This document shows, one piece after another, positions 10,647-55,955 of a DNA stretch of 64,000 nt. Both the position numbers and the translations under genes were made by a program. Position 1 is the first letter of the stretch; every line of letters begins with the position of its first letter. The notes under the pieces are model-generated. The model saw nothing but the letters and a program-made list of their open reading frames with translations, was not told where the DNA came from and did not search any database. Source of the stretch: an uncultured Gammaproteobacteria bacterium (lineage in GTDB: Bacteria > Patescibacteriota > Microgenomatia > Levybacterales > GWA1-39-11); contig CAYPEN010000005.1 in the NCBI GenBank assembly GCA_964409875.1, positions 11,569 to 75,568 of the forward strand. The letters are read 5' to 3'.

Positions 10647-10961
10647 ACCTGATAACTCCCATCAGAGTAAGTGGATATATAAAGATACTAATCCTTTAAA
10701 TATACCATTGCTGAGCCGTTTGGGTCTTTGCGGGTTAAACATCCGTTGATCGGGAGGAGCTATCTGAGAAAAAGACACTCAGGTTAATCTTGCAACCAAC
10801 TAAGGACAGTTGCCCGACCCCCAGGGCTGGGCGGCTTCCCAAGCAATCTGAGAGGCTGCAGAAATGGAATACAGCAACGAATCTTCCGCATTAACGGCTT
10901 AAGGCCAAGATCAATCGACACGTCGCCTTTGGATTTAAATGCGGACATGTCTGCATATTAA

Positions 10962-17003: not shown

Positions 17004-17046
17004 GTTTTCCGCGCGCCGCTGACTTAGCGTTGTTGCTGTCTCACAC

Positions 17047-17448: not shown

Positions 17449-17515
17449 CTCCCACATCCATCACCTCGTGATTATTCGCGCCTGACGGCGCTGTTATTTC
17501 TGTGGGAGTTTTTCT

Positions 17516-20067: not shown

Positions 20068-23256
<3,189 letters not shown>

Positions 23257-40222: not shown

Positions 40223-40891
40223 TTGAATACGCAGGACGCACAGGATTGGTACGCCAACGGGATTTTAAGGACAAAGCAGGATATGGCAGCTCTGGATTTC
40301 CTCGCCCTCTTTGCGATGTGTGCCCCTCAGGTACACCCCACCACATTGCAAGCCCTGATCGACGCCGAAAGCTCGTATCGCATCTACGCGGTACATGTGA
40401 ATGGCGACGATGCCGCACAACCCCCGCAACCCACTAACAAATCCGAAGCAACCGCCTTACTGACCCAGCTCCTCGATGCCAACAAGAGTGTCGATGTCGG
40501 ACTCGGCCAAGTGAACTCTAAAAATTTTGCGGCGCTCGGCCTTACTCCTGAAAACGCCTTTGACCCATGTACGAATATCAATGCCGCTGCGCAGATCCTG
40601 ACCGACAACTATGTGTTGGCGCACAAGAAGCTGCCCAGCGATGAAGCCCTGAAAGCCGCGCTATCGGCCTACAACACCGGCAACCAAACCGCCGGAATTG
40701 CCAATGGCTACGTCCAGCGCGTTCAAAGCAAGGTCGGTTATACCGTGCCGGCCCTGCAGGCCAACGAACCATCCACAACCCTGCGTGACGAAAGCCCGGT
40801 TCGGCTGTCGAGGGCCAACGCCCCGACTGCTGAATGGAGCACCTTCGCCCGCACAGCGCCAAAAGCGTGGGATGTGTACAGCCGCAAGTGA
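40223..40891 (+). CDS. virB1: VirB1-like lytic transglycosylase
   Basis: SLT-domain motifs (AESSYRIYAV..., GLGQVNSKN..., DPCTNINAAAQIL). Start may be Met 40283. Confidence 0.7.
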   Translation: MNTQDAQDWYANGILRTKQDMAALDFLALFAMCAPQVHPTTLQALIDAESSYRIYAVHVNGDDAAQPPQPTNKSEATALLTQLLDANKSVDVGLGQVNSKNFAALGLTPENAFDPCTNINAAAQILTDNYVLAHKKLPSDEALKAALSAYNTGNQTAGIANGYVQRVQSKVGYTVPALQANEPSTTLRDESPVRLSRANAPTAEWSTFARTAPKAWDVYSRK

Positions 40892-41004
40892 GAAAGCAGG
40901 GAGGGGAGCGGGCGCTCGGCACGCCCGCCGCGGTAGACATTGAGGGAACCGTCACGCAGTGCGAAACTCGCGGGTTTGAACCCGACCCGAGTGACGAAAC
41001 TCCG

Positions 41005-41286
41005 ATGGACACCATCACCGAACCCCAGCTCATTCTCACTGCGAAAACGGGCGGCGTGGAATATCTGCGCGCCGTCGAGACGACGGGAGGCTTTGCCTTC
41101 CGCGTCAAACTAAAGGGATTTAAGGAGGAAAAGCCGGTTTACACGATGCGCAACGCCCCAAAGCACTGGGTCAGCCTTGACCGCTTAGCGAAACACATAC
41201 GGACGAACTACGGCGATCACCCGCCAATCCTCATAGTGGATATTAGGAGCATCACCCATGACACCGACTTATCGAGTGGGCCATAA
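41005..41286 (+). CDS. Small hypothetical protein preceding virB2
   Basis: ~93 aa from MDTITEPQ. Overlaps the virB2 start. Confidence 0.3.
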   Translation: MDTITEPQLILTAKTGGVEYLRAVETTGGFAFRVKLKGFKEEKPVYTMRNAPKHWVSLDRLAKHIRTNYGDHPPILIVDIRSITHDTDLSSGP

Positions 41287-41623
41287 AACCCAAAACAGAT
41301 TGTTTCACCTGCCTGCCAATGTCATCGCGCTCGGCAAAGCCATCCTCTCTCCCCGCATCGCAATCAACTTCGCCTACATCCTGCTCATGCTGCTCGGCCC
41401 GCAGTTCGCACACGCCGAACCGTGGGACGAAGGCGCTGACTCCATCGTTGAAGCCATCCGCAGCGTCATGCGACCGCTCGCCATCATTGCGATCATTGTT
41501 TTGGGCTGCCTGGCGTTCTTTGGCCAGCTCGCCATGAAAACGGCCGCAATGGCTGCGGTTGGTATTTTTATTACAGTCGGAGCGGATGCCATCTACGACT
41601 ATTTCAGCAGCGCCGTGGGCTGA
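41258..41623 (+). CDS. virB2: VirB2/TrbC-family pilin
   Basis: 121 aa. Long leader, two hydrophobic segments, and a C-terminus typical of T-pilin precursors. Confidence 0.65.
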   Translation: MTPTYRVGHKTQNRLFHLPANVIALGKAILSPRIAINFAYILLMLLGPQFAHAEPWDEGADSIVEAIRSVMRPLAIIAIIVLGCLAFFGQLAMKTAAMAAVGIFITVGADAIYDYFSSAVG

Positions 41624-41638
41624 CAGGGAAGCAACTCG

Positions 41639-41959
41639 ATGAGCGTTCAGACAGACATTCTTTTTCAGGGCGCGACACGCCCAACGATGATGTACGGCGT
41701 TCCTATGGACGCGCTAATCATTATCGTTGGCATCGTGATGATCCTTTTTATTGGAATCGGCAATCCGCTGTACATGCTGATTTACCCGCCGCTGCATTTG
41801 ATTGCGATGGCGATATGCGCAAGCGACGCGCGCGCATTTCGCCTGCTGTATTTCGCAATCATCACCAAGGGTGTCTGTTTGAATCGCCACTTTTGGGGGG
41901 CGAGTTCATACAGCCCCGCCAGTGTCAGGGAGAGAAGGAGAGGACATGCGCGCAACTAA
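41639..41959 (+). CDS. virB3: VirB3
   Basis: ~100 aa. LFQGATRPTMMYGVPMDALIIIVGI matches the VirB3 family. Overlaps the virB4 start. Confidence 0.65.
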   Translation: MSVQTDILFQGATRPTMMYGVPMDALIIIVGIVMILFIGIGNPLYMLIYPPLHLIAMAICASDARAFRLLYFAIITKGVCLNRHFWGASSYSPASVRERRRGHARN

Positions 41960-44387
41960 GGCAGCCCCGGATTCGACTACGATCTTATCCCGCGAGAAAG
42001 CCATCGAAAGTCGCATCCCGTATGCGGCACAACTCGACAAATGGACGGTCAGCACGCTCGGTGGCGATTTGATCCAGGTTTTAAAAGTCGAAGGTATCGC
42101 TCACGAAAGCGCAGACCCCGATGATCTGGATGCGTGGCACAACGGGCTGAATACCTTGTTGTGCAACATCGCCAGCCCGCAGCTGGCGATCTGGTCGCAC
42201 ATCATTCGGCGCGAGGAGCGCGAATACCCGAAGGGAACTCCGCTGGGCAATTTCGCGCGCGCGCTCAATGACAAATACCGGGCACATGTCACCAGCGGCC
42301 GCATGATGGTCAATGAGCTGTATATCTCACTGGTGTACCGACCGAACGCCGGCGTCGCCGGCAAAATCGGATCGCTGTTTCAAAAGAAAAGCACCGAAGG
42401 CATCCGCGAAGCGCAACTCGAAGCTCTTACCGCCCTGGGCGATATCACCGAGCGCGTGCGCCGCGGCCTGCATCGCTACCAGGCGCGCTGTCTTGCTACC
42501 TACGAGCACAACGGCATGTTGTATTCGGAAACCCAGGAGTTCCTGTCGTTTCTGGTCAATGGTGAAGCGCGGCCAGTGCCGGTGTGCCGCAGCCCTATCA
42601 ATGCGGTGCTGGGCGTAGTGCGGCCTTTTTTCAGCACCGAAGCCTTTGAGCTGCGCGGCCCCGCGCGCAGCCAGGTCGGCGCGATTCTCACGCTGAAAGA
42701 GTACATGCCGGAAACCGCGCCGGGCTTGTTCAACACCCTGCTGACCATTCCCTATGCGTTCATCCTGAGCCAGTCGTTTACGTTCATGTCGAAAGGGGTG
42801 GCGCAAGGCCTGCTCACGCGCACGATCGCCAAAATGGTGAATGCCGGCGATTTGGCTGAAAGCCAGATTGAGGATCTGCACCTGGCACTGGATGATCTGA
42901 TCAGCGGCCGTTTCGTCATGGGTGAGCATTATCTGGGATTAACGCTGCTCGCGCAGGACGTGAAGCAACTCAACAAGGCCGTCGCCGATTGTTATGACCT
43001 GCTGACGCCAAGCGGCGGCATCGCCGTGCGCGAAGACGCGGCGATGGAAGCGGCCTATTGGTCGATGCTGCCGGGCGTGTTCAGTTTGCGCCCGCGCCCT
43101 GCGCCGATCACGTCGCGCAATTTCTGCGGATTTTCACCGCTGCACAATTACCCGACCGGCCGGCGCAATGGCAACCAGTGGGGGCCGGCGGTCACGCTGC
43201 TAAAAACCACCAGCGGCTCGCCGTACTATTTCAATTTTCACCTGCCGCTCGACGGCCGCCGCAGCGCCGACCCCGACGACGCTACCCGCGACAGCTCGCA
43301 AAAGGTATTGGGCAACACGATGATCATCGGGCCGTCCGGCTCCGGTAAAACCGCGCTGCAGGCCTTCCTGATCGCGCAGGCCGAGAAATATCAGCCGACC
43401 ACGGTTTTCTTCGACAAAGACCGCGGCGCGGAAATTCTGATTCGCGCACTTAACGGTACATACCTGCCGCTGAAAAATGGCATTCCCACGGGCTTCAATC
43501 CATTTTCACTGCCACCGACCGAGCAGAATCTTTTGTTCGTTGCTGGCTTGATCAAGAAGCTGGCGCTGCTATCGAATCCGGGCAAGCCACTGACCGTGCG
43601 CGAAGCGGCCGAAGTGGAATCCGCCGTCAAAGGCGTTTACGGCTTACCGGAACATATGCGCCGTATCGGTCAGCTGCAAAGTTTTCTCGACGGCACCGAC
43701 CCGGAAGGGCTCGGCGCGCGCTTGAAGAAATGGACACGCGGCCATGCACTCGGCTGGGTATTCGACAACGACACCGACGACCTCGATTTTACGCAAGGCC
43801 GCATTTTCGGTTTCGATCTGACCGACTTTCTCGACAACCCCGAAACGCGAACGCCGATCGTTATGTATGTGTTCTATCGGATGGAGCAGCTGATCGATGG
43901 CCGTCGCTTCTGCTGTTACATCGATGAATTCTGGAAAGCACTGTCGGACGAAGCGTTCGAGGATTTCGCGCAGAACAAAAACAAAACGATTCGCAAGCAA
44001 AATGGCTTGATGGTGTATGGATCACAAAGCCCCCAGGACGCACTTAGCTCGCCCATTTCGCACACATTGCTGGAGCAGTGCGCGACGTTGATCCTGATGC
44101 CGAATCCGAAAGCGCGCGAAAGCGACTACATCGAAGGACTGCATCTGTCGCAGGCTGAATTCGAGCTGATCAAGGAAGGCATGGGCGAAGGCTCGCGCCG
44201 CTTCCTGGTCAAGCAGGGCCAGCAATCCGTTGTGTGCGAGCTGGATTTGAAGGGTTTCGACAAGGAGCTCGCCGTGCTGTCCGGCACTACCGACAAAGTG
44301 GAGCTTCTTTCTCGGATCATCGCCGAGGTTGGCGATGACCCGGATGTATGGCTGCCGATCTTTCACGATCGGAACAACGCGGCGTAA
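41922..44387 (+). CDS. virB4: VirB4 ATPase
   Basis: 821 aa. Walker [10 protein letters not shown] and the Walker B / CagE-TrbE-VirB4 pattern. Confidence 0.9.
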   Translation: MSGREGEDMRATKAAPDSTTILSREKAIESRIPYAAQLDKWTVSTLGGDLIQVLKVEGIAHESADPDDLDAWHNGLNTLLCNIASPQLAIWSHIIRREEREYPKGTPLGNFARALNDKYRAHVTSGRMMVNELYISLVYRPNAGVAGKIGSLFQKKSTEGIREAQLEALTALGDITERVRRGLHRYQARCLATYEHNGMLYSETQEFLSFLVNGEARPVPVCRSPINAVLGVVRPFFSTEAFELRGPARSQVGAILTLKEYMPETAPGLFNTLLTIPYAFILSQSFTFMSKGVAQGLLTRTIAKMVNAGDLAESQIEDLHLALDDLISGRFVMGEHYLGLTLLAQDVKQLNKAVADCYDLLTPSGGIAVREDAAMEAAYWSMLPGVFSLRPRPAPITSRNFCGFSPLHNYPTGRRNGNQWGPAVTLLKTTSGSPYYFNFHLPLDGRRSADPDDATRDSSQKVLGNTMIIGPSGSGKTALQAFLIAQAEKYQPTTVFFDKDRGAEILIRALNGTYLPLKNGIPTGFNPFSLPPTEQNLLFVAGLIKKLALLSNPGKPLTVREAAEVESAVKGVYGLPEHMRRIGQLQSFLDGTDPEGLGARLKKWTRGHALGWVFDNDTDDLDFTQGRIFGFDLTDFLDNPETRTPIVMYVFYRMEQLIDGRRFCCYIDEFWKALSDEAFEDFAQNKNKTIRKQNGLMVYGSQSPQDALSSPISHTLLEQCATLILMPNPKARESDYIEGLHLSQAEFELIKEGMGEGSRRFLVKQGQQSVVCELDLKGFDKELAVLSGTTDKVELLSRIIAEVGDDPDVWLPIFHDRNNAA

Positions 44388-44411
44388 GCCGCAATTCATA
44401 GGGGACATGAG

Positions 44412-45128
44412 ATGAAAACAACCCGCAAGAAAAACATCTGCGCAGCCGCAGTGGCTGCAACGTTCTTCAGCGTCGCAATGCCACTGCATCACGCCTTTGC
44501 CTCCGGCATCCCCGTACTCGACGTGGCGGGCCTGGTGCAGGCAGTTCAGCAGGTCCAAACCGCCTATGAGCAGCTGACCCAGCTGCAGAACCAACTCAAA
44601 CAAGCAGAGCGAACCTATGAATCGATGACCGGTGCGCGCGGCATGACCGAGCTGCTGAACAATCCCGCAGCGCGGAAGTTCTTGCCGGAAGATATGCAAG
44701 CCATTCTCGAAGCGACCAGCGAGCTGACCGACAAGTACAAGGCGGCAGGGCGGTTACTGAAGAACAATGCCTGGCAAGACGCCGCAATGGAAGCCGCCAA
44801 ACATCTGAGCGATCAGGAAAGCTCCGCCGCCACCGATTTAGCGAACTCTGAAACGACGTACAACCGCGCCGGCGAACGCATTGAGGAGTATCAGGATTTC
44901 GTCGATCAGATCGACGAGAGCACTGATCCGAAAGCCATCCAAGACCTGCAAGCACGCATCCAGTCCGAGCAGGTCTTTCTGCAAAACGAAACCGTGCGCC
45001 TGCAATCAATGCAGCTCGCGCAGCAGGCGAAGCGAGATATGCAGGCAGTTCGTAGCCGCGAACGCCGAATCAATATGACGGGATCACACACAACTGACTA
45101 TTCCGATGTATTCAGCGTGGATGACTAG
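44412..45128 (+). CDS. virB5: VirB5 minor pilus subunit
   Basis: 238 aa with a signal peptide, helical. IPVLDVAGLVQAVQQVQTAYEQLTQLQNQL is typical of VirB5/TraC. Confidence 0.7.
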   Translation: MKTTRKKNICAAAVAATFFSVAMPLHHAFASGIPVLDVAGLVQAVQQVQTAYEQLTQLQNQLKQAERTYESMTGARGMTELLNNPAARKFLPEDMQAILEATSELTDKYKAAGRLLKNNAWQDAAMEAAKHLSDQESSAATDLANSETTYNRAGERIEEYQDFVDQIDESTDPKAIQDLQARIQSEQVFLQNETVRLQSMQLAQQAKRDMQAVRSRERRINMTGSHTTDYSDVFSVDD

Positions 45129-45188
45129 CGACTGCGGCCATTCAGGGCTGTCGTCATTGACGACCAGCATTTTAAGGAGTTTCAGAAT

Positions 45189-45446
45189 ATGAAAATGAAA
45201 TCTGCACTACTAACAATGGGCGTCGCTATTTTGATCGGAGGATGTACCAAATCGGAAGAAACACACGACGTGGCGTATTACCAAAACAATCCCGATGCTT
45301 TGAAAGAAAAGTGGGATCAGTGCACCAATAATCCTGGTGATCTGGAGAAATCAGCAAACTGCATAAATGCAGCGACAGCCAGGCGCGTAAATACAACGCA
45401 AGGACGCACCACAGACTACTCCGATGCGTTCAAAGGTAAGCCATAA
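45189..45446 (+). CDS. Small lipoprotein between virB5 and virB6 (entry-exclusion Eex-like)
   Basis: 85 aa. Lipobox LIGGC. The position between virB5 and virB6 is where Eex-like lipoproteins sit in VirB-type clusters. Confidence 0.4.
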   Translation: MKMKSALLTMGVAILIGGCTKSEETHDVAYYQNNPDALKEKWDQCTNNPGDLEKSANCINAATARRVNTTQGRTTDYSDAFKGKP

Positions 45447-45458
45447 CTGGGGATCAAT

Positions 45459-46553
45459 ATGGCCGCACTCACTGCAGAAGAATACCCAATCGTAACCAAT
45501 TTTTTTAACTTCCTGCATAGCTCCATTGAGGGCTATGTCACGGATACGTCAGCGAGCATTGTCGCAGCAATTACGCCTGTTGCATCCGTTTGCGGAATTA
45601 TTGTGATCATGGTTTACGGCATCCTGCTAATGCGCGGTTCTGTCGAGGCTCCGCTCATGGACGCCATATATAGAGGACTAAAATTAATCGTCATTTTAGG
45701 CTTTGCCCTCAATGTCGGAATTTACCAAACATATATCGCTGACTTCTTTTTAAACGCACCATCACATATGGCAGCTGTGATAAGCGGAATTCCCACAGAC
45801 ACTGATATAGGGCAGGAAAACGCTGCACCGATAACAGAGTTTTTGGTGGCGTCTTTTAACCTCGCAGATCGTCTCTGGGCCGAGGCGGATACTTTCGATT
45901 TCGGCAATTACATTATGGGCGGAATCGTTTATGTTCTTGGAACAATTCTAGGCGCTTACGCTGCATTCCTATTCGCGTTGAGTAGCATCGCGGTCGCAGT
46001 TCTATTGGCGGTAGGCCCGATATTCATATTGTTGTCGGTATTCGAGTCGGGGAAGAAATTTCTAGAAATGTGGCTTCAACAAGCCTTTAACTTTGGGTTC
46101 GTCGCTGTGCTAACCGCCGCCTGCCTACGGTTCTTTCTGTCAAATGTCGAATTCATTGCATCCAAAGCAATCGAGAAAGAATCTCCTATCGAAACGTTTG
46201 ATGTAACCACATTTAGCGTGATTTCGTTAATTGGTGTACTGGTACTTCGTCAAGTTATGCCTATTGCTTCCGGACTGGCTGGCGGCATGGCGCTGGCAAC
46301 GCAGGGAGCCTTTGGTGCCGCCGCTGGTGCTATGGGCAGAGCGTTGGGCGCCACTGCCAAACGCTATACCCCGAACAATGTCGCCGAGAGATATAGACGG
46401 AATCAGCGCAACTCAGCAACGTGGCGAAAAATTCGCGGTGAGTGGGGCGACCGCGCTGCAAGCGTAAAAGGTGCGGCACAGAAAGCCACATCTGCAGCAT
46501 CAAACGCATACAAACGTAAATTTGAACCAAACAGAGTTTCCAAAGCAGCGTAG
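45459..46553 (+). CDS. virB6: VirB6/TrbL polytopic inner-membrane protein
   Basis: 364 aa, 5-6 TM helices, Gly/Ala-rich C-terminal tail. Confidence 0.7.
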   Translation: MAALTAEEYPIVTNFFNFLHSSIEGYVTDTSASIVAAITPVASVCGIIVIMVYGILLMRGSVEAPLMDAIYRGLKLIVILGFALNVGIYQTYIADFFLNAPSHMAAVISGIPTDTDIGQENAAPITEFLVASFNLADRLWAEADTFDFGNYIMGGIVYVLGTILGAYAAFLFALSSIAVAVLLAVGPIFILLSVFESGKKFLEMWLQQAFNFGFVAVLTAACLRFFLSNVEFIASKAIEKESPIETFDVTTFSVISLIGVLVLRQVMPIASGLAGGMALATQGAFGAAAGAMGRALGATAKRYTPNNVAERYRRNQRNSATWRKIRGEWGDRAASVKGAAQKATSAASNAYKRKFEPNRVSKAA

Positions 46554-46640
46554 CTAAAAACAGGCATTTGGTGCCGCGGTTGGTTGCGCCCTAAATTTTA
46601 CAAAAGAATACATATTGTTTCGACAAAGGAGGTAATTCTG

Positions 46641-46781
46641 ATGGGAAGGATACTAATCGTTTCACTGCTCGCGGCGCTGTGTGTTGGTTGCGCAGCGCCG
46701 CAACCTGCGACCTGTGATGGCAGCAATCTGCGCCCGATCAATCAACCGCTCGATAAGCCTGCTGAGGAGTCCGCGCAATGA
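46641..46781 (+). CDS. virB7: VirB7 lipoprotein
   Basis: ~46 aa. RBS aggagg then ATG, lipobox LCVGC. Overlaps the virB8 start. Confidence 0.55.
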   Translation: MGRILIVSLLAALCVGCAAPQPATCDGSNLRPINQPLDKPAEESAQ

Positions 46782-47482
46782 ATGCAAAGACCGAATCAAA
46801 TTCGTTCTCGAAACTGGAACAGCAGTTTTTCGAAGAAGGCCGCACCTGGGAAACGGATCGCTTAAGGGATGCCATCAGCAGTCGTCGGACCGCATGGATT
46901 GTCGCATCCGCCGCATGCGTAATTGCTGGCCTGTCAGTCATCGCGGTCGTAGGTCTTACACCACTCAAAAAGGTCGAACCTTTTGTCGTGCGCGTGGATA
47001 ACGCAACGGGCGGTGTTGATATCGTGAGCACACTCAAAGACGGCAAAGAGACCTACACCGAAGCAGTCACCAAACACTTCCTGCTGCGGTACGTTTTGGC
47101 GCGCGAGTCGTACAGCCGCCAGGCGGCCAGCTCCAATTACGAATCGGTCGGGCTGATGTCAACGCCGGCCGTCGCAAAGCGCTACTTCGAACAATTCAAT
47201 CCCGAAAATCCGCAAAGTCCGCTGGTTGTCTACGGCAAGTCCACCACAGCTGAACTGAAGATCAAGAGCATCGCCTTCGTCGGGCCGACAATTGCCAATG
47301 TGCGTTATTCGCGGCTCATTTATCGCGTGACCGGGCAAGCCCCGGAAACCACGCAATGGGTCGCAACGATCGGCTTCAAATATTCCTCATCCTCAATGCG
47401 CGAGCGTGATCGGTTGTTGAACCCGTTGGGCTTTCAGGTCACGGAGTACCGCACCGATCCCGACAGCCTGGAGGCCAAGTAA
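46778..47482 (+). CDS. virB8: VirB8
   Basis: 234 aa. Single N-terminal TM helix, NTF2-like C-terminus, and the VirB8 motif pattern (YVLARESY). Confidence 0.8.
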   Translation: MNAKTESNSFSKLEQQFFEEGRTWETDRLRDAISSRRTAWIVASAACVIAGLSVIAVVGLTPLKKVEPFVVRVDNATGGVDIVSTLKDGKETYTEAVTKHFLLRYVLARESYSRQAASSNYESVGLMSTPAVAKRYFEQFNPENPQSPLVVYGKSTTAELKIKSIAFVGPTIANVRYSRLIYRVTGQAPETTQWVATIGFKYSSSSMRERDRLLNPLGFQVTEYRTDPDSLEAK

Positions 47483-48289
47483 ATGAGCCGCACGCTGTTT
47501 GCATTGTTGGTTGGAATCCTGTCGCCATTGCCGGCGCTGGCCCTCGCGCAACCGGAAGCCGGCCCCAAGGACTACCGCGTCAAATACGTCGATTACAACG
47601 CCGATGAAGTGTTTCGGATCAAGGCGTTTTATCAGCGCAATTTGCGTATTGAGTTGGCACCCGGCGAGGTCGTCAAGGACATTGGTATTGGCGATCCGCT
47701 GGCCTGGGATCATGTGCCGTCCGACAACAACATCTTTATCAAGCCGAAGCGCGAAGACGCCACCACAAATATGTCGGTGGTCACGAACCGACATACCTAC
47801 GAATTTGAATTGCATGCGTCAAAGCCGCCCGAAAAAGGCCAGTACGTGGATCTGACGTATGCAATCAAATTTCGCTACCCGGCCGAACAGCAAGCATTGG
47901 CCCTCGCTCAATCCAAGCGCGAAACGGCGGAAGACATGCTGAATATGTCGCCGGAGAAGAATCCCGAGGCCAACTGGAACTATTGGGTACAAGGCTCCGA
48001 AAGCATCAGCCCCGATAAGGCATTTGACGACAAAACGTTTACTTACCTCACGTTCACGCACAACAAGACGATGCCGGCAATTTATGCAGTAGACGAAGCC
48101 GGCTCGGAAGTGTTGGTGAACACGCACGTCGAGGGCGATGTAATCGTCGTTCATACCGTCGCAACCAAGCTGGTGCTTCGCAAAGGCGAACTAGCCGCCT
48201 GCGTATTCAACAAAAGTTACGACTCAAAGGGCGTGAGCAACACCAGCGGCACGATCTCCCCATCAGTCAAGCGCATGATTCGTAAGTGA
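47483..48289 (+). CDS. virB9: VirB9
   Basis: 268 aa, signal peptide. VirB9/CagX/TrbG-family beta-rich protein. Confidence 0.8.
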   Translation: MSRTLFALLVGILSPLPALALAQPEAGPKDYRVKYVDYNADEVFRIKAFYQRNLRIELAPGEVVKDIGIGDPLAWDHVPSDNNIFIKPKREDATTNMSVVTNRHTYEFELHASKPPEKGQYVDLTYAIKFRYPAEQQALALAQSKRETAEDMLNMSPEKNPEANWNYWVQGSESISPDKAFDDKTFTYLTFTHNKTMPAIYAVDEAGSEVLVNTHVEGDVIVVHTVATKLVLRKGELAACVFNKSYDSKGVSNTSGTISPSVKRMIRK

Positions 48290-48296
48290 GGGAAAA

Positions 48297-49556
48297 ATGA
48301 GAACGGATGGAAACCACGATAGCCAGGAATCGGAAATTGACGGCGTAGGAGAAGCACTCGCCGGAGAGCGCACAATTCCGAGTGTCAGCGCGCGCAAGCG
48401 CCCACCCTTTGCCGCGATCGGCGCGGCAACGGTGTTCATCGTTGTTGCAGTGACCATGTTCGTTTACGCCAACAAAGGCGATCCGAAGCAAAAGGCTCAA
48501 GACAAAGCCGTAGCAGCGGCCGAGGAGCGGGATAAGAACAAAAAACTGTCCCAGCATTTGCCAGGCATCGACTTCAAGGCCATTGCAGCAGCAGACGCGG
48601 CGGAACGGCCGGAATCTGTTGTTGCACAATCTGGCGATACATTGCCTGCGACCGCCGACGGCAAGCCGGCGCTCCCAGGCGCGGCGTCGGCCGGCAACGC
48701 TGCATCCAAGGCAAGCGATCGCGACGCCGAACGCCTGGCGCGTGAAGCGGAGAAAGCGCAGCGGGAGGCCGACGAACTGGCAAGAAAGCGGCTCGAAGCC
48801 TCGCCACTGGCGTATTCGCAGAAGGGGAAAGCCTCGGCCGAGGATAAGGCGCTCGCGATGGCGCGCTCACTGAGCGGCGGCACCGGCGGCGTATCGGATG
48901 AATCCGACGATGCGGGTGATGGACTGTCCGTGAAGCTGAAACCCACCAAAGTACAGGGCGCGCGCGCTGGCCTTTTGCCGCACCCGAACTTCATGCTGAC
49001 CAAGGGCCATTTCCTTGAATGCACATTGGAACAGGCCATCAATTCAACGCTCGCCGGCCTGCTGAGTTGCCGCCTGGCGAACGATATCTATTCGACCAAT
49101 GGCAAAGTCTTGCTGATAGAGCGGGGTTCACGCATCACAGGCGAATATCAGCGTGGCCTGATGAAAGGCCAGGCGCGCCTATTCGTGCTCTGGACTCGAA
49201 TTGAAACGCCGCTCGGTGTTGTGGTCGATCTGGATTCGCCGGGTACTGACGCGCTCGGCCGCTCCGGCATCGATGGGTATGTGGACCAGCATTTTGCGCA
49301 ACGCTTTGGCGCGGCAATCTTGTTGAGTCTGATCGATGACGTGGGGCAGTACGCCATCGCGGAAGCTCAAGACGGCAATGCCAACCAGATCAATCTCGGC
49401 GGTACTGCACAAGCGGCGGATGATATGTCCACCATCGCCATGAAGTATTACATCGACATACCACCGACGCTGGAGAAGAACCAGGGCGGGCATGTGTCCA
49501 TTTACGTCGCCCGAGACTTGGATTTTGCCGATGTGTACACGCTTGCACATGAGTGA
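48297..49556 (+). CDS. virB10: VirB10
   Basis: 419 aa. N-terminal TM, Pro/Ala-rich linker, and conserved C-terminal beta-barrel domain (...GTDALGRSGIDGYVD...). Confidence 0.85.
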   Translation: MRTDGNHDSQESEIDGVGEALAGERTIPSVSARKRPPFAAIGAATVFIVVAVTMFVYANKGDPKQKAQDKAVAAAEERDKNKKLSQHLPGIDFKAIAAADAAERPESVVAQSGDTLPATADGKPALPGAASAGNAASKASDRDAERLAREAEKAQREADELARKRLEASPLAYSQKGKASAEDKALAMARSLSGGTGGVSDESDDAGDGLSVKLKPTKVQGARAGLLPHPNFMLTKGHFLECTLEQAINSTLAGLLSCRLANDIYSTNGKVLLIERGSRITGEYQRGLMKGQARLFVLWTRIETPLGVVVDLDSPGTDALGRSGIDGYVDQHFAQRFGAAILLSLIDDVGQYAIAEAQDGNANQINLGGTAQAADDMSTIAMKYYIDIPPTLEKNQGGHVSIYVARDLDFADVYTLAHE

Positions 49557-50613
49557 GGTCAAGGTGGTGACGAACATAGCCGACGCGCAGCACAACAGCG
49601 GCAAAAACGATGCGTCCGCGCTGTTGGAATACCTGGGGCCACTCAAGCCATTTTTCGACGATCCGGCCGTAACCGAGATTTGCGTCAACCGGCCGGGGGA
49701 GGTGTACACCGAATCCCGCGCCGGCTGGCGTCGCTATGATTGCCCCGACGTGACATTTTTTCTGTGCAAACAGCTGGCGCAGCTGACGGCGACATTCAGT
49801 AATCAAAAAATCAATGACGAAAATAACCTGCTCAGTGCGCAACTGCCGCTCGGCGAGCGGGTGCAGTTCGTCGTGCCGTCGGCATGCGAGCCCGGCACGG
49901 TATCGATGACCATTCGCAAACCGTCAAAGCTGGTCAAAACGCTTGAAGAGCTGGAAACAGACGGCGTTTTTGCCGCTGTCCGCGATATCTATTCGAACGA
50001 TTTCTTGCCAGAAGAAAAAGAATTGCTCGCGCTCAAGGAAGCCGGCCGTTACCGCGAATTCATTCAGCTCGCGGTTCAAAGCAAAAAAAACATTGTCATC
50101 AGCGGGGCGACCGGAGCGGGGAAAACCACGCTGATGCGCGCAATGGTCGGCTGCATTCCAGCGCAGGAGCGCTTGGTGACCATCGAAGACGTTCACGAAC
50201 TACCGCTGCCGGGCCATCCGAATCATGTCCACCTTTTTTATTCCAAAGACGGGCAGGGGCTGTCGAAGGCGTCGCCCAAACAATTGCTGGAAAGCTGCCT
50301 GCGCATGAAACCCGACCGGATATTGCTCGCGGAGCTGCGCAGCGATGAAGCCTTTTACTACTTGCGCAACGTGAATAGCGGCCACCCAGGCAGTATCACC
50401 AGCATTCACGCCAACAGCGCAAAACTCGCCATCGAGCAACTGGGATTGCTCGTCAAGGAGTCGGCCGGCGGCTCCAACCTGAGCCGGGACGACATTAAAT
50501 CGCTGCTCTACATGCTGGTCGACGTGGTGGTGCAATTCAAGAATATAGCGGGGCGGCGAGTCATGACGGAGGTCTTCTATGATCCAGCACTTAAAAGAAA
50601 GCACATGGATTAA
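49549..50613 (+). CDS. virB11: VirB11 ATPase
   Basis: Walker A ISGATGAGKTT and the His-box of the VirB11/PulE family. Start placed at MSEVKVV. Confidence 0.85.
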   Translation: MSEVKVVTNIADAQHNSGKNDASALLEYLGPLKPFFDDPAVTEICVNRPGEVYTESRAGWRRYDCPDVTFFLCKQLAQLTATFSNQKINDENNLLSAQLPLGERVQFVVPSACEPGTVSMTIRKPSKLVKTLEELETDGVFAAVRDIYSNDFLPEEKELLALKEAGRYREFIQLAVQSKKNIVISGATGAGKTTLMRAMVGCIPAQERLVTIEDVHELPLPGHPNHVHLFYSKDGQGLSKASPKQLLESCLRMKPDRILLAELRSDEAFYYLRNVNSGHPGSITSIHANSAKLAIEQLGLLVKESAGGSNLSRDDIKSLLYMLVDVVVQFKNIAGRRVMTEVFYDPALKRKHMD

Positions 50614-52471
50614 GGCCGCCGGCATCGCCATCGCGGCGATTGCAGTTCTCGTGCTCTGGTCGTGGCTGGCCGGCTGTATGTTCATGCTGGTCAATAAAAC
50701 CAAGCCCATCGGTGTGCTTCCGCAAACTTTCTGGACGTATGTATATCACTACCATGCAGAAAGGCAGGTCATGGGCCAGCTCGCTATTGCTGCCGGCGTT
50801 CCGCTGGTGGTCGCGTTTTTTGGGATCGCCGGGCTTCTCCAGAAAAAACGCTCACTGCACGGTGAGGCGCGTTTTGCCAATCGCCGCGAAATTACTCAAT
50901 CCGGCCTGCTGGCATCGAAGGGAATAATCGTTGGCACCCACGGCAACCGCTTTTTAACTTCGGATGGTCCTTTCCACGTACTGCTCGCCGCTCCTACACG
51001 CAGCGGCAAAGGCGTCGGCGTGGTTATCCCGAATTTATTGAGCTGGGCTGATTCAGTCGTCGTCCTGGACATAAAGCAGGAAAACTGGGATCTGACAGCC
51101 GGCTTCCGCCAGCAACACGGCCAACAATGTTTCTTGTTCAACCCAGCCGCGCGCGATTACCGCACGCACCGCTGGAATCCGCTCGCGTATGTCTCTACCG
51201 ACGAGCATTTCCGTGTTGATGATCTGCAAAAAATCGGATCGATGCTGTGGTCCGAAACGCAGGGTAACGAAGGCTTTTGGGATCAACTGGCCGGCTCATT
51301 ATTTCTCGGCATTTCGCTCCTGGTGATGGATAGCCCGGAGCTGCCGTTCACGCTCGGCGAGTGTCTGCGCCAGTCGATGAAGCCCAACCTGCAGAAACGA
51401 TTCATGAAAATCATCGCGCAGCGTCGCAAAGAGGGTAAACCGCTGCCGTCGCAATGCGTGAATGCGCTCACAGCCTTTGCAGGGCGATCGGAAAATACCA
51501 CGGCGTCGATCCTTTCGACGTACCAAGCGAAATTGAATATCTGGTTGAACCCGGTAGTCGATGCCGCCACGTCGGCCAACGATTTCGATTTGCGCGAGCT
51601 GCGCCGCAGTCCGATGTCGATTTATCTCGGCATAACGCCGGATAACCTGGCGCGTTTGGCCCCGGTGGTAAATCTGTTCTTTCAGCAGGTCATCGATCTA
51701 CAGATGCGCAAGCTGCCGCAGCAAGACCCGACCTTGAAACATCAGGTCTTAATGCTGATGGACGAATTCACCGCGATGGGCAAGGTCGGAATTCTCGCCG
51801 AAAGCATTGCCTATGTGGCGGGCTATGGGCTGCGCTTGCTCCCGATCGTGCAGAGCACGTCGCAGCTTGTAGAGCGTTACGGTCAACATCAATCTGAAAA
51901 CTTCATCGAAAATCACGCGGTGCGAATTGTGTTCGCCCCCGAGTCAATCAAGATCGCGAAGGAACTGAGCGAAACGCTCGGCTATGAGACCGTGAAAAGC
52001 ACCAATATCAGCAAGCAAAAGGGTCTGCGAGCAAAAGTCGGTCTGCACAATGAAAGCGAGAGTGATCAGCGCAGGGCATTACTGCTACCGCAGGAGCTAA
52101 TGACGCTCGGCTCAAAGAAGGAAATTGTGTTTCATCGCGGCACCAAACCTATTCTGGCGGATAAGGTTATTTACTACAAAAGCAGTGTTTTTAAAGATCG
52201 TATTTGTACCGCGCCTTCGGTGCCTAAACTGGTCTTACTGACAGAGCATCTTACCCAGGATGCCTATGCCATCGACGATCAAGCAGAGCAATCAGCCGGC
52301 CGCGATTTCTCCATTACCGATTTGCCAAACGTTGACAGCATTTCGCTGGATCAATTCAGTTGCGATTTTAGCGACATTGAAATCCCCAATGACCCGATCA
52401 GCGATGCCGACGTGGCAAAGCTGGCGGATGCCTTTTTTGATCGCATCACCAATAGCACGGAGACAGCATGA
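50579..52471 (+). CDS. virD4: VirD4/TraG type IV coupling protein
   Basis: 630 aa. Two N-terminal TM helices, Walker A LAAPTRSGKGVGVVIPN and the TraG/VirD4 family pattern. Confidence 0.9.
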   Translation: MIQHLKESTWIKAAGIAIAAIAVLVLWSWLAGCMFMLVNKTKPIGVLPQTFWTYVYHYHAERQVMGQLAIAAGVPLVVAFFGIAGLLQKKRSLHGEARFANRREITQSGLLASKGIIVGTHGNRFLTSDGPFHVLLAAPTRSGKGVGVVIPNLLSWADSVVVLDIKQENWDLTAGFRQQHGQQCFLFNPAARDYRTHRWNPLAYVSTDEHFRVDDLQKIGSMLWSETQGNEGFWDQLAGSLFLGISLLVMDSPELPFTLGECLRQSMKPNLQKRFMKIIAQRRKEGKPLPSQCVNALTAFAGRSENTTASILSTYQAKLNIWLNPVVDAATSANDFDLRELRRSPMSIYLGITPDNLARLAPVVNLFFQQVIDLQMRKLPQQDPTLKHQVLMLMDEFTAMGKVGILAESIAYVAGYGLRLLPIVQSTSQLVERYGQHQSENFIENHAVRIVFAPESIKIAKELSETLGYETVKSTNISKQKGLRAKVGLHNESESDQRRALLLPQELMTLGSKKEIVFHRGTKPILADKVIYYKSSVFKDRICTAPSVPKLVLLTEHLTQDAYAIDDQAEQSAGRDFSITDLPNVDSISLDQFSCDFSDIEIPNDPISDADVAKLADAFFDRITNSTETA

Positions 52472-53661
52472 TGAGCACTGTAGAAAAGGAGTTAAAGGCC
52501 GGTGGAACAGACCGCGAGGAGTTGCCTGCCGCTGGCAGCTCGCGTCCGCGCAGCGACGACGGACACGAGCGCGGTTTTCGCATCAACAACATTGCGGCTG
52601 ACGCCATAGCGGTGCGGCGCAGCGAAAACGCCAGGGGCGATCTGCAATTTGATGTGGAATTCGCGCAGCAAGGTAAATCGCTGGGTCGCTTGAGCAATTT
52701 GAGTCTTGACGATTTGGAAACCGCAGTGGGCGAAAAGAACACGAGGGCAGCCATTGAGGGTAAGTCCGAAATAACCCTAAAGGGCGATCAACTGGCGCCT
52801 TATGACGGCCTCACGCCAAAGGAACAGGATCGCCAAATTATCGAAAAGGAAACGCGCAAGAGCGCGGACTTCTCAATTGACCAGCGCAGCGCGCGCGCAA
52901 ATGAAATTCCGCTAACGATTCCCAGCGCGGGCGATATGGAATTCGATAGGAAAAACCCGAACGCCATCGAAAATGCGAATCCACCCAAACGCCAAGGCCA
53001 GCAAATCGAAAATGAGGACATATTGCCGCATCTGCGCGAGAAGGCGCCGCGCCCGGTGCCTCCCGCCATCGCTGAGAAATACACACAGGACGGACAGCGC
53101 TATTACGATCGATCGTCAGAGCTGAAGACCCCGGCCTTCACGGATCGCGGCGACAAGTTCAGCACGGCGCGACACGACTCCCAGGTTGCCAGCGATATGG
53201 TTGAAATGGCGCGCGCGCGCGGCTGGGAGCAGATCGAACTCAAGGGTGATGAAGAGTTTCGACGCGCGGCATGGATTGCTGCTGAAGCTAAAGGCATCCA
53301 GACCAAAGGCTACACACCCACCGAAAAGGAAATAGAGGTCGCCGCCAATAAGCGATCAACCATTGAAGCTGTTGAAACCACCAACATAACGCGGGATGGT
53401 GAATTGCCGGCGGATTTGCGCGAACGCGCCAAAACAGACCCCGAGGCACTTAAGGCAGTGGGAATACGGCAGCTGGCAAAGGAAGTCGCCAATCATTTAC
53501 TCGCCGATCGTGTTTTGCGAGAGCGGTTTGAGCGCACCGTCGAGCATCGACTGGAAGAACATCTGAAGGGCAATCGCCCGCTGCCCAGCTTGAAGCTGCG
53601 CGACGATCGCGAGAAGGAACGGGGCGATGACGACCTGCGAGAGCAGTCGGTGGGCCGGTAG
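52468..53661 (+). CDS. Conjugation-associated protein with LPD7-like domain
   Basis: 397 aa. ...FSTARHDSQVASDMVEMARARGWEQIELKGDEEFRRAAWIAAEAKGI... resembles large-polyvalent-protein domain 7, which is frequently encoded right after traG/virD4. Overlaps the virD4 stop. Confidence 0.35.
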   Translation: MMSTVEKELKAGGTDREELPAAGSSRPRSDDGHERGFRINNIAADAIAVRRSENARGDLQFDVEFAQQGKSLGRLSNLSLDDLETAVGEKNTRAAIEGKSEITLKGDQLAPYDGLTPKEQDRQIIEKETRKSADFSIDQRSARANEIPLTIPSAGDMEFDRKNPNAIENANPPKRQGQQIENEDILPHLREKAPRPVPPAIAEKYTQDGQRYYDRSSELKTPAFTDRGDKFSTARHDSQVASDMVEMARARGWEQIELKGDEEFRRAAWIAAEAKGIQTKGYTPTEKEIEVAANKRSTIEAVETTNITRDGELPADLRERAKTDPEALKAVGIRQLAKEVANHLLADRVLRERFERTVEHRLEEHLKGNRPLPSLKLRDDREKERGDDDLREQSVGR

Positions 53662-53728
53662 TTGGACGCGTAAACGATTCGAGTAATTCCCTTACTGACA
53701 AGTCCTAAAGGGACTTTAGGAGAGCACC

Positions 53729-54028
53729 ATGAAGCAGCAATTAATTGTAGTCAGCCTGTGTGTGGGCTTCATTGCATCCTCCGGCGCATTGGCGAAGGAG
53801 GCTTGCAGTACCGAGTTGTGCCTGGGCGGAATGTTGTTGACCGGCGAGCAGGCGGACAACTGCAAAGGCCCGATAAAGGACTTCTTCGAAATCGTGAAAT
53901 TCAAGAACGGCCACCCAAGCCCCTCCAGAACCTTGAACGCCAGAAAATCCTTTCTCAATAGCTGCCCGAGCGGGGACGACAACAAGAAAACGGAGATTCT
54001 CGCGAAGTTCGGGAAGGTGTTTCTTTAA
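53729..54028 (+). CDS. Small secreted cysteine-containing protein
   Basis: 99 aa, signal peptide, 5 Cys. Local GC is lower than the backbone. Confidence 0.35.
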   Translation: MKQQLIVVSLCVGFIASSGALAKEACSTELCLGGMLLTGEQADNCKGPIKDFFEIVKFKNGHPSPSRTLNARKSFLNSCPSGDDNKKTEILAKFGKVFL

Positions 54029-54116
54029 GCAGCGAATGCGCGACGACACCACTACCTTCCACAGTGGTGTCTATTGCATACACGCATTACAGGAATCGAG
54101 CAGATAAGGAGTTCAT

Positions 54117-54341
54117 ATGCTCATTTTGACGCGCCACATCGGCAGCAGTTTGTTCATTGGTGATGATATTAAAGTGATGGTTCTCAACATCAGTGGAAAC
54201 CAGGTCCGTATCGGAATCGACGCACCCAGGAATATTGCAGTACACCGTGAGGAGATTCACGACCGCATTCAGTTAGCGCACGAAAGCGACGGCAAGCGGC
54301 CTAAGCTCCACCGCGCCAAGCCACCCATCGAAAAGGAATGA
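54117..54341 (+). CDS. csrA: CsrA/RsmA-family post-transcriptional regulator (plasmid-encoded)
   Basis: [51 protein letters not shown] aligns residue-for-residue with canonical CsrA ([48 protein letters not shown]). Confidence 0.85.
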
Positions 54342-54345
54342 GGTC

Positions 54346-55020
54346 ATGAATGCACGGACATATATCGGAATTCTCACCGCGCTGATTGTCGTTGGCTGCA
54401 CCACAACCGACCCGAAAACCGGCGAGAACAAAACCTCGAATACCGCAAAGGGCGCTGGCATTGGCGCCGTCGCTGGCGCCGTGATCGGATCTGCAGTAAA
54501 TCACGATAACCGCGCCCAAGGGGCTGCGATCGGGGCGGCCCTTGGCGGTGGCGCCGGCGCCGCCGTCGGCTACCGCAAGGACAAGCAAGAGGCAGAACTC
54601 AGGGAGAAGCTGAAAAACAGCAGTATCGAAGTTCAGCAGGGGGGCGATGCGATAAAAGTTGTGATGCCTGGTAGCGTCAGCTTCGATGCCGACAGCGCAA
54701 AACTGCGGCCCAATTTTCAGGACAAACTCGCAAAGATTTCCGAGTCCCTGAATCAATACCCGGATACAACAATATTTATTGCTGGGCACACCGATAACAA
54801 GGGGCCTGAGCCGTTCAATAAAAAGCTATCCCTCGATCGCGCCAACAGCGTTGCAACCTATCTCGTCGCGCAGGGCATCGACAGCAAGCGCATCAAGACG
54901 GCCGGCTTTGGCTCCAGCGTACCGATCGGTGACAATGCCACCAACATGGGGCGGGCCAAGAATCGCCGTGTCGAGATCAAGATTGTCGCGCCGGCGCCGG
55001 CAACCGCATCGTCCAACTAA
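54346..55020 (+). CDS. OmpA-family lipoprotein with glycine-zipper segment
   Basis: Lipobox VVGC. Gly-zipper GAGIGAVAGAVIGSAV...GAAIGAALGGGAGAAVG. C-terminal OmpA-like peptidoglycan-binding motif (FIAGHTDNKG...NRRVEI). Confidence 0.75.
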   Translation: MNARTYIGILTALIVVGCTTTDPKTGENKTSNTAKGAGIGAVAGAVIGSAVNHDNRAQGAAIGAALGGGAGAAVGYRKDKQEAELREKLKNSSIEVQQGGDAIKVVMPGSVSFDADSAKLRPNFQDKLAKISESLNQYPDTTIFIAGHTDNKGPEPFNKKLSLDRANSVATYLVAQGIDSKRIKTAGFGSSVPIGDNATNMGRAKNRRVEIKIVAPAPATASSN

Positions 55021-55090
55021 GGCGCGTTTTCCGCATGCAGCATACGGCCGCTACGGCGGCCGTAGTTTATTTGAGAATTGGCGAACGAAG

Positions 55091-55567
55091 ATGAAGAAAA
55101 TTAGATATGTTTCTGTGTGCGTGATGTTGTTGATTGCATGTGCCGCGCATGCCGATTTTTCCGGCATCGTGGTGGGCGTGCTCGATGGCGACACTGTAGA
55201 TGTTTTGGTGGATCGCAAGCCGGTGCGCGTGCGCCTGGCCGAAATTGACGCGCCCGAGAAGGCCCAGCCATTTGGCACGAAGTCTCGCCAAGCGCTGGCC
55301 TCTTCGGTTTTTCAGCAGATGGTAACGGTGAAGACCACTGGCACTGATCGCTACGGCCGCACCATAGGCACACTTTGGCTGAAGGACAGGAACATCAATA
55401 AAATGATGGTCACGCAAGGTATGGCATGGGCGTATCGGAAATACCTTTCCGATCAGTCGCTACTCGCTGCAGAAGCCACAGCGCGAGGCGAGGGGTTGGG
55501 GCTATGGGCTGACCCACATGCAGTTCCGCCGTGGGAATGGCGAGCGGAAAAGCGGCAACGGCAATAG
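55091..55567 (+). CDS. nuc: Secreted thermonuclease (SNase-family) protein
   Basis: Signal peptide, then VVGVLDGDTVDV...VRLAEIDAPE...RYGRTIGTLW, the SNase catalytic pattern. Comparable to nuc/parB nucleases of conjugative plasmids. Confidence 0.75.
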   Translation: MKKIRYVSVCVMLLIACAAHADFSGIVVGVLDGDTVDVLVDRKPVRVRLAEIDAPEKAQPFGTKSRQALASSVFQQMVTVKTTGTDRYGRTIGTLWLKDRNINKMMVTQGMAWAYRKYLSDQSLLAAEATARGEGLGLWADPHAVPPWEWRAEKRQRQ

Positions 55568-55955
55568 CTGTTGGCGATTCCGTTCACGAACACGCTACGG
55601 ATTACATCGGACCACGGGCCCGCTTTTCGGCCATTGCGGCCGCTCAAGCAACTTCGTTTGATGCAATGAGTGACAGCTTTACAGCGCTTTTATTTACGAT
55701 GAAAAAGCGGACGCGAACACTAACTCAAGCGGCATGTAGCACTATTCCACCCTGAATGAGTAGAGAGGTTCATTCAGGTGAGCACTTTTCCGCAAGGCTC
55801 ATCGCAAAATGTAAAACAGGCTAATTGAACGTGCGATTTAACAGCGACGATCAAATGGCCTGCTCCTTCAGCAGCAGCCCAACATCGCTATCCACTTGCC
55901 GATTGGAACGCGCCGCCATAAGATAGTAATCAATTACTACCTTGTGGTGCGCATC

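Follow-up and report, generated by a model that had tools for sequence, protein, structure and literature searches.

Background

In Xanthomonas citri, the chromosomal CsrA protein binds to the GGA-rich 5' untranslated region (UTR) of virB7, partly represses the virB operon, which encodes a type IV secretion system (T4SS), and limits its fitness cost (PMC7286519). With the exception of csrA and csrR, the csrA paralogues of Legionella are found in integrative and conjugative elements (ICEs) (PMC4471563), and lvrC is part of a regulatory module (lvrRABC) that is located beside T4SS clusters and has been described as unique to this genus (PMC3864950). RsmQ, encoded by the megaplasmid pQBR103 of Pseudomonas fluorescens, conditionally alters the conjugation rate of this plasmid (PMC9928087). 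The present work deals with a csrA gene at the distal end of a conjugative T4SS operon, in a 64,000-nt stretch of contig CAYPEN010000005.1 (assembly GCA_964409875.1), hereafter named the window.

CsrA proteins of mobile elements are already known from ICEs and plasmids of Legionella and from plasmids of Pseudomonas, Xanthomonas and Piscirickettsia, and the reasons for their carriage by plasmids remain for the most part obscure. The RsmQ survey found 106 homologues on 98 of 12,084 plasmids (COMPASS, 0.8%), regarded them as "not uncommon, but taxon specific" and saw no overall link between the carriage of rsm genes and the mobility of plasmids across taxa (PMC9928087). In a tblastn search with the window CsrA, 255 of the 72,556 PLSDB plasmids gave a match. 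Hence, plasmid-borne CsrA, which a preliminary description of this DNA had called rare, is so only in relative terms. No plasmid CsrA in PLSDB was more than ~70% identical to the window protein, in matches that covered ~70% of it. The csrA genes of Xanthomonas plasmids were considered as cases of the same arrangement and rejected, since they lie outside T4SS operons.

The locus shares with the X. citri virB7 UTR a VirB-type operon leader with multiple GGA motifs, one of them at the ribosome-binding site. It differs in that the X. citri regulator is the global CsrA of the host, encoded elsewhere, the UTR has ~240 nt and the T4SS is bactericidal, whereas in the window csrA lies within the conjugative operon itself, the leader has ~50 nt and the regulatory loop would be closed. 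With the LvrC/CsrT class of Legionella it shares the tie between csrA and conjugative T4SS clusters on mobile elements, the retention of the key RNA-binding residues and the diversity of fast-evolving sequences (PMC4471563, PMC3864950). Unlike in Legionella, the T4SS of the window is IncU-like in gene order, with the VirB8 protein of Xylella pXF51 as its best PLSDB match (48% identity), and csrA is found at the 3' end, past virD4 and an LPD7 gene, and not in a 5' module of the lvrRABC type. Its neighbours are LPD7, kikA/trbM, OmpA lipoprotein and nuclease genes, and the scan of the window neighbours showed no gene similar to lvrR, lvrA or lvrB, for which no direct search was made. In the F-type plasmids of Legionella, csrA was found directly 5' of traT and traA; these CsrA proteins are 41-47% identical to that of the window, which stands apart from them in a neighbour-joining (NJ) tree and is not affiliated with them. 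RsmQ is likewise a CsrA homologue on a conjugative plasmid, with a canonical fold class that the window protein, judging by its sequence, probably shares, but its documented effects are mainly on the host, whereas the csrA gene described here is embedded and conserved in a transfer operon.

Conservation of csrA at the distal end of the transfer operon

The leader and genes concerned are the following:

40232..40282, + strand: 5' leader of virB1, with five GGA motifs (at 40234, 40243, 40260, 40269 and 40279)
40283..52471, + strand: VirB/D4-type T4SS operon, in the order virB1 (SLT), an open reading frame (ORF), virB2, virB3, virB4, virB5, virB6, virB8, virB9, virB10, virB11 and virD4
52468..53661, + strand: LPD7-domain gene (Pfam LPD7, 77.5 bits), which overlaps the virD4 stop by 4 nt
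53729..54028, + strand: kikA/trbM-like gene; its product of 99 aa, predicted to be secreted, belongs to the conjugal-transfer family TrbM/KikA/MpfK
54117..54341, + strand: csrA, encoding a 74-aa RNA-binding protein of the CsrA/RsmA family (domain at residues 1-52, followed by a 22-aa tail)
54346..55020, + strand: gene of a YiaD-type glycine-zipper/OmpA lipoprotein (NF053611, 252.7 bits against a cut-off of 175; Pfam OmpA and Gly-zipper)
55094..55567, + strand: SNase-type nuclease gene (Pfam SNase, 93.1 bits)

The genes virB1, virB2, virB4, virB5, virB6, virB8, virB9, virB10, virB11, virD4 and LPD7 were assigned by Pfam matches. The virB3 call refers to a virB3-sized ORF (41639-41959), whose counterparts in the related loci L021, L023, L024 and L026 match PF05101 VirB3. 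The virB1 start (ATG at 40283) was set by the conserved N-terminus MAALDFLAL...CAPQVHP. The order of the T4SS genes is that of the IncU plasmid pRA3 and of pMBUI7, and the LPD7 gene, which corresponds to TraC4/TraO in the IncU group and its relatives, occupies the same place in both. The two ORFs that the preliminary description had reported at 53729-54028 and 54117-54341 were found there, the second being a real CsrA-family gene on a conjugative plasmid (Pfam and NCBIfam matches, replicon genes). Its placement of csrA immediately past the T4SS, beside OmpA-like and nuclease genes, was borne out by the same kinds of matches, which put csrA directly 3' of the T4SS and type IV coupling protein genes.

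Apart from a ~95-96% identical allele (locus L110), the closest CsrA sequences are chromosomal (55-78% identity) and belong to csrA genes of uncultured Gammaproteobacteria in an alaS-aspartokinase-csrA context. A search based on CsrA alone thus made the gene look like isolated cargo, but a comparison based on the T4SS altered this picture. In the four closest VirB8 relatives among 5.8 billion proteins (83, 71, 63 and 60% identity), virB1...virB11, virD4 and LPD7 are followed by csrA plus a kikA-like gene of 96-99 aa. The Gly-zipper/OmpA gene comes next after csrA/kikA in four of the five lineages, and the nuclease gene comes next in the closest one.

A degenerate-pattern scan of Joint Genome Institute (JGI) metagenomes, built on the VirB8 alignment, yielded 80 more loci. 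The JGI loci, the related loci found earlier, the window and two IncU references were scored with profile hidden Markov models, and the 47 loci in which virD4 and at least 2.5 kb downstream of it were present were taken as informative. CsrA was found in all eight loci (five distinct lineages) with a VirB8 at least 60% identical to that of the window and in none of the 39 loci with a VirB8 at or below 52%, pRA3 and pMBUI7 among them. KikA showed the same distribution across the 47 loci. In the eight loci of the clade, csrA ends 1.4-2.2 kb 3' of the end of virD4 and is therefore physically linked to the T4SS. Hence, among the 47 checkable loci, csrA at this position is confined to a conserved T4SS sub-clade, a result that goes beyond the preliminary description.

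Past LPD7, pRA3 and pMBUI7 lack kikA, csrA, OmpA and nuclease genes. In a sister group (L032/33, L041-43 and L047; VirB8 identity of 48-52%), LPD7 is directly joined to an OmpA-type gene, without csrA or kikA. For this reason, csrA and kikA look like a two-gene insertion at the LPD7/OmpA junction, or else like genes lost in the sister group, and the OmpA-type gene, present there after LPD7 in the absence of both, appears to be the older T4SS-distal partner. The gene order across these loci indicates that csrA is not stray cargo but a conserved part of the distal conjugation operon. Fixed at one position in five lineages, it offers a testable case for the carriage of CsrA by plasmids. No account of csrA and kikA at the 3' end of a VirB/D4 operon outside Legionella, together with a conserved 5' GGA leader, was found in the literature searched.

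The relative order of the two genes varies: it is kikA-csrA in the window (53729-54341) and in L021, and csrA-kikA in L023 (13856-14374), L024 (17002-17498) and L026 (16840-17364). Despite this inversion across sub-lineages, both genes lie between LPD7 and the OmpA gene. The OmpA-type gene of the sister clade is longer (~318 aa), overlaps LPD7 by 4 nt and matches the YiaD-type lipoprotein of the window in phmmer.

No PLSDB plasmid has a VirB8 more than 50% identical to that of the window, and two pattern scans of the GTDB representative genomes (with the LPD7 protein and with the VirB8 alignment) revealed no relatives of the clade, which, judged by these patterns, is absent from named isolates. 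The clade is recorded from metagenomes and one NCBI contig only; it is an uncharacterised plasmid lineage with a T4SS that is a distant relative of the IncU and pXF51 types.

The csrA gene and its product

The window protein matched Pfam CsrA (PF02599) with 80.9 bits (cut-off 27) over positions 1-52 of the 53-position model, the NCBIfam equivalog PRK01712 with 95.5 bits (cut-off 73) and TIGR00202 with 81.0 bits (cut-off 70.1). All the scores thus exceeded the curated cut-offs over the full domain, as expected of a member of the CsrA/RsmA family. The best match among solved structures was RsmE in its complex with hcnA RNA (2JPP, E 3.5e-19), with RsmA and E. coli CsrA next. At the level of sequence, the matches to 2JPP, 1VPZ and 1Y00 were collinear and covered the full domain (E 1e-18 to 1e-19), and the permuted RsmN and RsmF gave only weak partial matches (E about 1e-4). 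The identity with E. coli CsrA over residues 1-52 is 62%. The preliminary description had stated that the protein matches canonical CsrA across nearly its entire length. This holds for the whole CsrA domain, which itself has about 52-56 aa, and is slightly generous for the last ~20-22 residues, which form a lineage-specific, basic and Pro-rich tail.

All 19 invariant columns of a 29-sequence alignment (A1) are kept in the window protein (M1 L2 I3 L4 T5 R6 ... H43 R44 E46 I47). The residues of the RNA-binding surface are present in strand beta1 (L2, L4 and R6) and in strand beta5 (V42, R44, E46 and I47); their functional weight is known from work on E. coli CsrA and RsmE. These matches indicate that the 74-aa protein is a CsrA-family RNA-binding regulator, predicted to be functional. 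Position 7 (54135-54137) is H instead of R, and RsmE has K there. In the sampled alignment, all the chromosomal CsrA proteins have R7 and the mobile copies vary, with H in the window, S and C in two Xanthomonas plasmids (L003 and L013) and M and K in the T4SS-linked relatives L023 and L024. In this small sample, residue 7 may be a position at which specificity is tuned in mobile CsrA proteins.

The G+C content at third codon positions of csrA is similar to that of the neighbour genes, so the gene bears no sign of recent insertion. Two GGA motifs precede it:

54092..54110, + strand: leader of csrA, in which ACAGGAAU (54092-54094) and the AAGGAG of the Shine-Dalgarno sequence (54108-54110) carry the two GGA motifs, 16 nt apart

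Both motifs are unchanged in the L110 variant, and only the Shine-Dalgarno one is present in all five lineages. The pair is a possible autoregulation site.

GGA motifs in the virB1 leader

The suggestion of the preliminary description that GGA targets be sought in the virB leaders has support in the sequence. The virB1 leader, with five GGA motifs (CAGGAC, CAGGAU, CGGGAU, AAGGAC and CAGGAU-AUG), ranks first among the 53 gene leaders of the window, the others having 0-3, and its motifs are conserved across lineages (counts of 5, 4, 3, 4 and 3 in the five). Three GGAs, those at 40243, 40260 and 40269, occur without change in the five lineages, with a conserved spacing of ~17 nt and ~9 nt, and the last of them forms the ribosome-binding site; just 5' of each one, the base is variable. 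All nine GGA columns are invariant versus 16 of the 51 other UTR columns (Fisher p = 1.4e-4), a p-value biased by the fact that the alignment was anchored by hand on the GGAs. When 0.96 Mb of related T4SS loci were searched with a sequence model of the leader alone, the matches were confined to loci that carry csrA; in the window, the virB1 leader was its sole match. The leader is short and conserved, and its three invariant GGAs can be mutated individually.

Directly upstream lies a promoter-like sequence:

40200..40228, + strand: promoter-like TTGACA-N17-TTGAAT, recognised by inspection, with the palindrome CAAAA-N7-TTTTG inside

Promoter and palindrome are kept in four of the five lineages. 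The upstream sequence of L023 differs: the promoter region is replaced there, and the same virB1 leader is kept with three GGAs. The palindrome is probably a separate transcriptional operator, possibly for a repressor of the Kor type, beside any control at the RNA level.

The only two further clusters of at least five GGAs per 50 nt in the window (46849-46898 and 48285-48354, +) also map to the T4SS operon, on its sense strand, with one in the 5' coding region of virB8 and the other at the junction between the virB9 stop and the virB10 start.

Proposed regulation of the T4SS and alternative explanations

Taken together, the position of csrA and the GGA motifs of the leader suggest, with a rough probability of 0.45, that CsrA encoded at the tail of the operon binds the virB1 leader and limits translation of the T4SS. 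The csrA gene would be transcribed with the T4SS operon or right behind it, as the gaps are short (24-29 nt between LPD7 and csrA in L023 and L024, and 4 nt between csrA and yiaD in the window), a scan of the stretch from virD4 to csrA found no sigma-70 consensus, and it is only past yiaD that a terminator-like site is present. CsrA dimers would then bind the GGAs of the virB1 leader and occlude its ribosome-binding site, thereby holding the T4SS low, and might also destabilise the virB mRNA. The outcome would be a negative feedback that is carried by the plasmid, is independent of the host Csr system and keeps the T4SS at a low set-point. Side-effects on GGA-containing mRNAs of the host would be likely and secondary.

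More tentatively, the loop may be closed and host-independent, with CsrA at the tail of the operon and the GGA platform at its head co-inherited through the divergence of the clade (VirB8 identity down to ~60%). The literature searched gave no description of a self-contained, operon-internal CsrA autoregulatory circuit in a conjugative element. If the loop exists, it would show that conjugative plasmids can bring along a translational control of the cost and dosage of their T4SS, unlike the chromosomal T4SS of X. citri, which relies on the host CsrA, and this dosage would be set even in hosts without a Csr system. It would also suggest how transfer control could remain constant between hosts, and it would extend the association between T4SS and CsrA beyond Legionella.

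Several observations, in addition to the bias of the p-value given above, weigh against control of the virB1 leader by the plasmid CsrA. High-affinity CsrA sites usually present the GGA in a hairpin loop, and no stable or conserved hairpin presenting a GGA was predicted in the virB1 leader of any lineage. Clusters of at least five GGAs per 50 nt amount to three in the window, versus a Markov expectation of 3.0 +/- 1.8, and a Poisson estimate gives ~0.4 such GGA-rich leaders among 53 by chance. Because clusters are not enriched window-wide, the GGA evidence consists only of the rank of the leader and its conservation across lineages. The leader as a whole is 75% conserved, so part of the invariance of the GGAs is general conservation. 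Leader and csrA are co-inherited in one clade, and their co-distribution therefore counts as a single phylogenetic event. The region upstream of virB1 in the outgroup is mostly coding and hence not a like-for-like control. On the side of the protein, the fast divergence of CsrA and the changes at H43 (to N in L021 and to F in L024) could reflect a relaxed or altered specificity, and the dN/dS of 0.53 between the window csrA and L110 is based on six differing codons (two synonymous and four non-synonymous), too few to inform. Finally, the host's own CsrA could be the regulator of the virB1 leader.

The chief rival is a main function in plasmid-chromosome crosstalk, which seems somewhat unlikely; it is compatible with the feedback model, and both may coexist. 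CsrA would bind host mRNAs and the Csr/Rsm sponge RNAs of the host, shifting motility, metabolism or biofilm formation so as to favour maintenance or transfer of the plasmid, like RsmQ or CsrT, and its position at the T4SS would give co-expression only. RsmQ reshapes the proteome of its host, binds to host RNAs and alters motility and conjugation rate (PMC9928087), and csrT, if expressed ectopically, can replace CsrA as a repressor of flaA expression and of motility (PMC5655016). With its canonical RNA-binding surface, the window protein would bind GGA targets of the host. The search for a Csr/Rsm sponge RNA on the plasmid gave zero Rfam matches in the window, both at the gathering thresholds and with E values up to 1, and titration would therefore depend on host RNAs. 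The named relatives of the CzcA-type pump in the plasmid cargo are Gammaproteobacteria, which normally have Csr systems. However, crosstalk leaves unexplained both the strict long-term linkage of csrA and T4SS in five lineages and the conserved GGA-rich leader, restricted to csrA-bearing loci.

It is decidedly unlikely that csrA has no link to the T4SS leader. The leader would in that case be a DNA operator bound by a transcriptional repressor of the plasmid, or a strong unstructured translation-initiation region, and csrA would act on kikA and yiaD only, or be a neutral hitch-hiker in the accessory tail of the operon. The conserved promoter palindrome is typical of Kor-type operators, the leader motifs form GGATT direct repeats, and the GGA cluster statistics are compatible with chance. 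Besides, the leader is predicted to be unstructured, and a GGA overlaps any Shine-Dalgarno sequence, those of kikA and yiaD included. Nevertheless, L023 lost promoter and palindrome yet kept the transcribed leader with three GGAs, and the GGAs are invariant while their flanking bases vary. Neutrality is also at odds with the maintenance of csrA, with intact key residues, in five diverged lineages.

Evolution of the T4SS-linked CsrA proteins

Between the five lineages, the CsrA core is 44-67% identical, a range similar to those of KikA, YiaD and LPD7 and far below those of VirB4 (72-91%) and VirB11 (73-92%). Residues L2, L4, R6, V42, R44, E45 and E46 are kept in all five, and position 7 is H, R, M, K and R, respectively. 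Each T4SS-linked CsrA shares 30-34 of the 52 core residues with E. coli CsrA and has a long branch in the NJ tree. That these proteins act as antagonists of the host CsrA, forming heterodimers or competing for sponge RNAs and thereby relieving or altering host Csr control, is very improbable, because the RNA-binding residues, needless for a pure protein antagonist, are conserved, even if the accelerated evolution relative to chromosomal CsrA proteins, the variable residue 7 (H/R/M/K, and S/C in Xanthomonas plasmid CsrA proteins) and a C-terminal extension in L021 would fit such a role.

A single acquisition of csrA followed by fast divergence is argued from synteny. Monophyly of the T4SS-linked CsrA proteins was examined by NJ bootstrap (56 columns) and found no support (1/200). 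The CsrA core of the window is nearer to chromosomal CsrA proteins (up to 78%) than to its syntenic counterparts (52-67%), which makes replacement in situ of the plasmid csrA by host copies possible.

The closest syntenic CsrA, that of L021 (17323-17850, +; the lineage with 83% VirB8 identity), is called as a protein of 175 aa, in which the CsrA domain is normal (residues 1-53, Pfam 76.3 bits) and is joined to a C-terminal extension of ~115 aa in which no Pfam match was found. It also has T5K and H43N. It may be a real fusion or the result of an assembly frameshift.

The KikA-like protein and the other distal genes

The 99-aa protein encoded upstream of csrA, presented in the preliminary description as a small secreted Cys-rich protein, is indeed predicted to be secreted and contains cysteines; it is not an orphan, belonging to the known T4SS accessory family TrbM/KikA/MpfK. 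By inspection, it has an N-terminal Sec-type signal (...SSGALA|KE) and four Cys in the mature part. It matched Pfam TrbM with 34.1 bits (cut-off 21), which places it in the family, and the NCBIfam IncP TrbM equivalog with 28.8 bits (cut-off 259), so it is not the IncP TrbM equivalog. By tblastn, homologues were found in 4022 PLSDB plasmids, covering at least 80% of the protein in 3721 of them, with ~40% identity and the annotation "TrbM/KikA/MpfK family conjugal transfer protein". In one IncX4-type plasmid the homologue lies directly 3' of virD4. Like other members of the family, which are small secreted proteins with conserved cysteines at the edge of P-type (MPF_T) T4SS operons, the window protein has these features; it differs in being paired with csrA and in being only ~40% identical to annotated members.

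Two hairpins were noted in this region:

54045..54071, + strand: hairpin in the gap between kikA and csrA, with a perfect 9-bp stem (GACACCACU / AGUGGUGUC) and a 9-nt loop, without a T-run on the 3' side
55043..55064, + strand: terminator-like hairpin of 9 bp (7 GC) followed by GTTTATTTGA, found by a consensus scan

The region 54020-54125, which includes the first one, folds with -29.1 kcal/mol (z = -2.7). In L110, one stem position and one loop position are changed, the stem thus having one mismatch. The complement of the loop is GUGGAAGGU, which would give a GGA-containing loop on the antisense strand. The second hairpin is likely to be the end of a kikA-csrA-yiaD transcript, and it is weak evidence because shuffled sequences are expected to hold about as many terminator-like sites as this region.

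The yiaD-type gene begins 4 nt past the csrA stop and has its ribosome-binding site within the 3' end of csrA. The SNase gene, which is reminiscent of nuc of the IncN plasmid pKM101, is also found 3' of the OmpA gene in L021, and it forms the far end of the T4SS-linked module.

Plasmid context of the window

The window encodes a RepA of the RPA type, two pairs of ParA and ParB(KorB) proteins and a relaxase of the MobA/VirD2 type, accompanied by a NikA/MobC accessory protein, together with the full T4SS, and a tRNA search of the window found none. For these reasons, the plasmid-encoded status of csrA is well supported. With RepA, ParAB/KorB, relaxase and a complete T4SS of the MPF_T class in one window, the CsrA homologue is located on a conjugative plasmid. 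The exact CsrA protein was found on five contigs, one of them the NCBI contig of 101,474 bp, and the csrA-bearing plasmid is estimated at ~100 kb. The window also shares 19.9 kb of identical sequence with a Logan contig. Megablast of the region 52400-55700 against PLSDB gave no match, and in distant blastn searches of this database only virD4 was matched (~70% identity), in IncU-type and related plasmids.

The densest GGA stretch of the window (10157-10306, +; 8 GGA per 150 nt, window mean 1.85, sd 1.39) is intergenic, between a parA-like gene (9183-10133, -) and an ORF (10366-10749, +). It was considered as a Csr/Rsm sponge RNA and, for the present, rejected (fold z = +0.35 against shuffles, no repeats and no Rfam match); instead of an RNA, it could be an operator or a region for partition.

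Genes with a possible role in defence or addiction encode Abi_2 (402-1379, +), a DUF4917/SIR2_2-like protein (11319-12425, +) and a zeta toxin (35735-36913, +). The zeta toxin, DUF3560 and ArdC-N genes located 5' of virB1 were found again in the related loci L021 and L026.

The transfer region is flanked by cargo (14811-23256 and 55956-59659, +) that includes metal efflux genes for a P-type ATPase and a CzcA-type pump of the resistance-nodulation-division (RND) family, as well as an efflux set of TetR and MacAB-like proteins, after which come an IS4-family transposase and a short tyrosine recombinase. The CzcA-type pump is 88% identical to a protein of a Spongiibacteraceae metagenome-assembled genome, and its named relatives belong to Spongiibacteraceae, several genera of Nevskiales and Immundisolibacter, which gives a weak hint of a gammaproteobacterial host for the plasmid.

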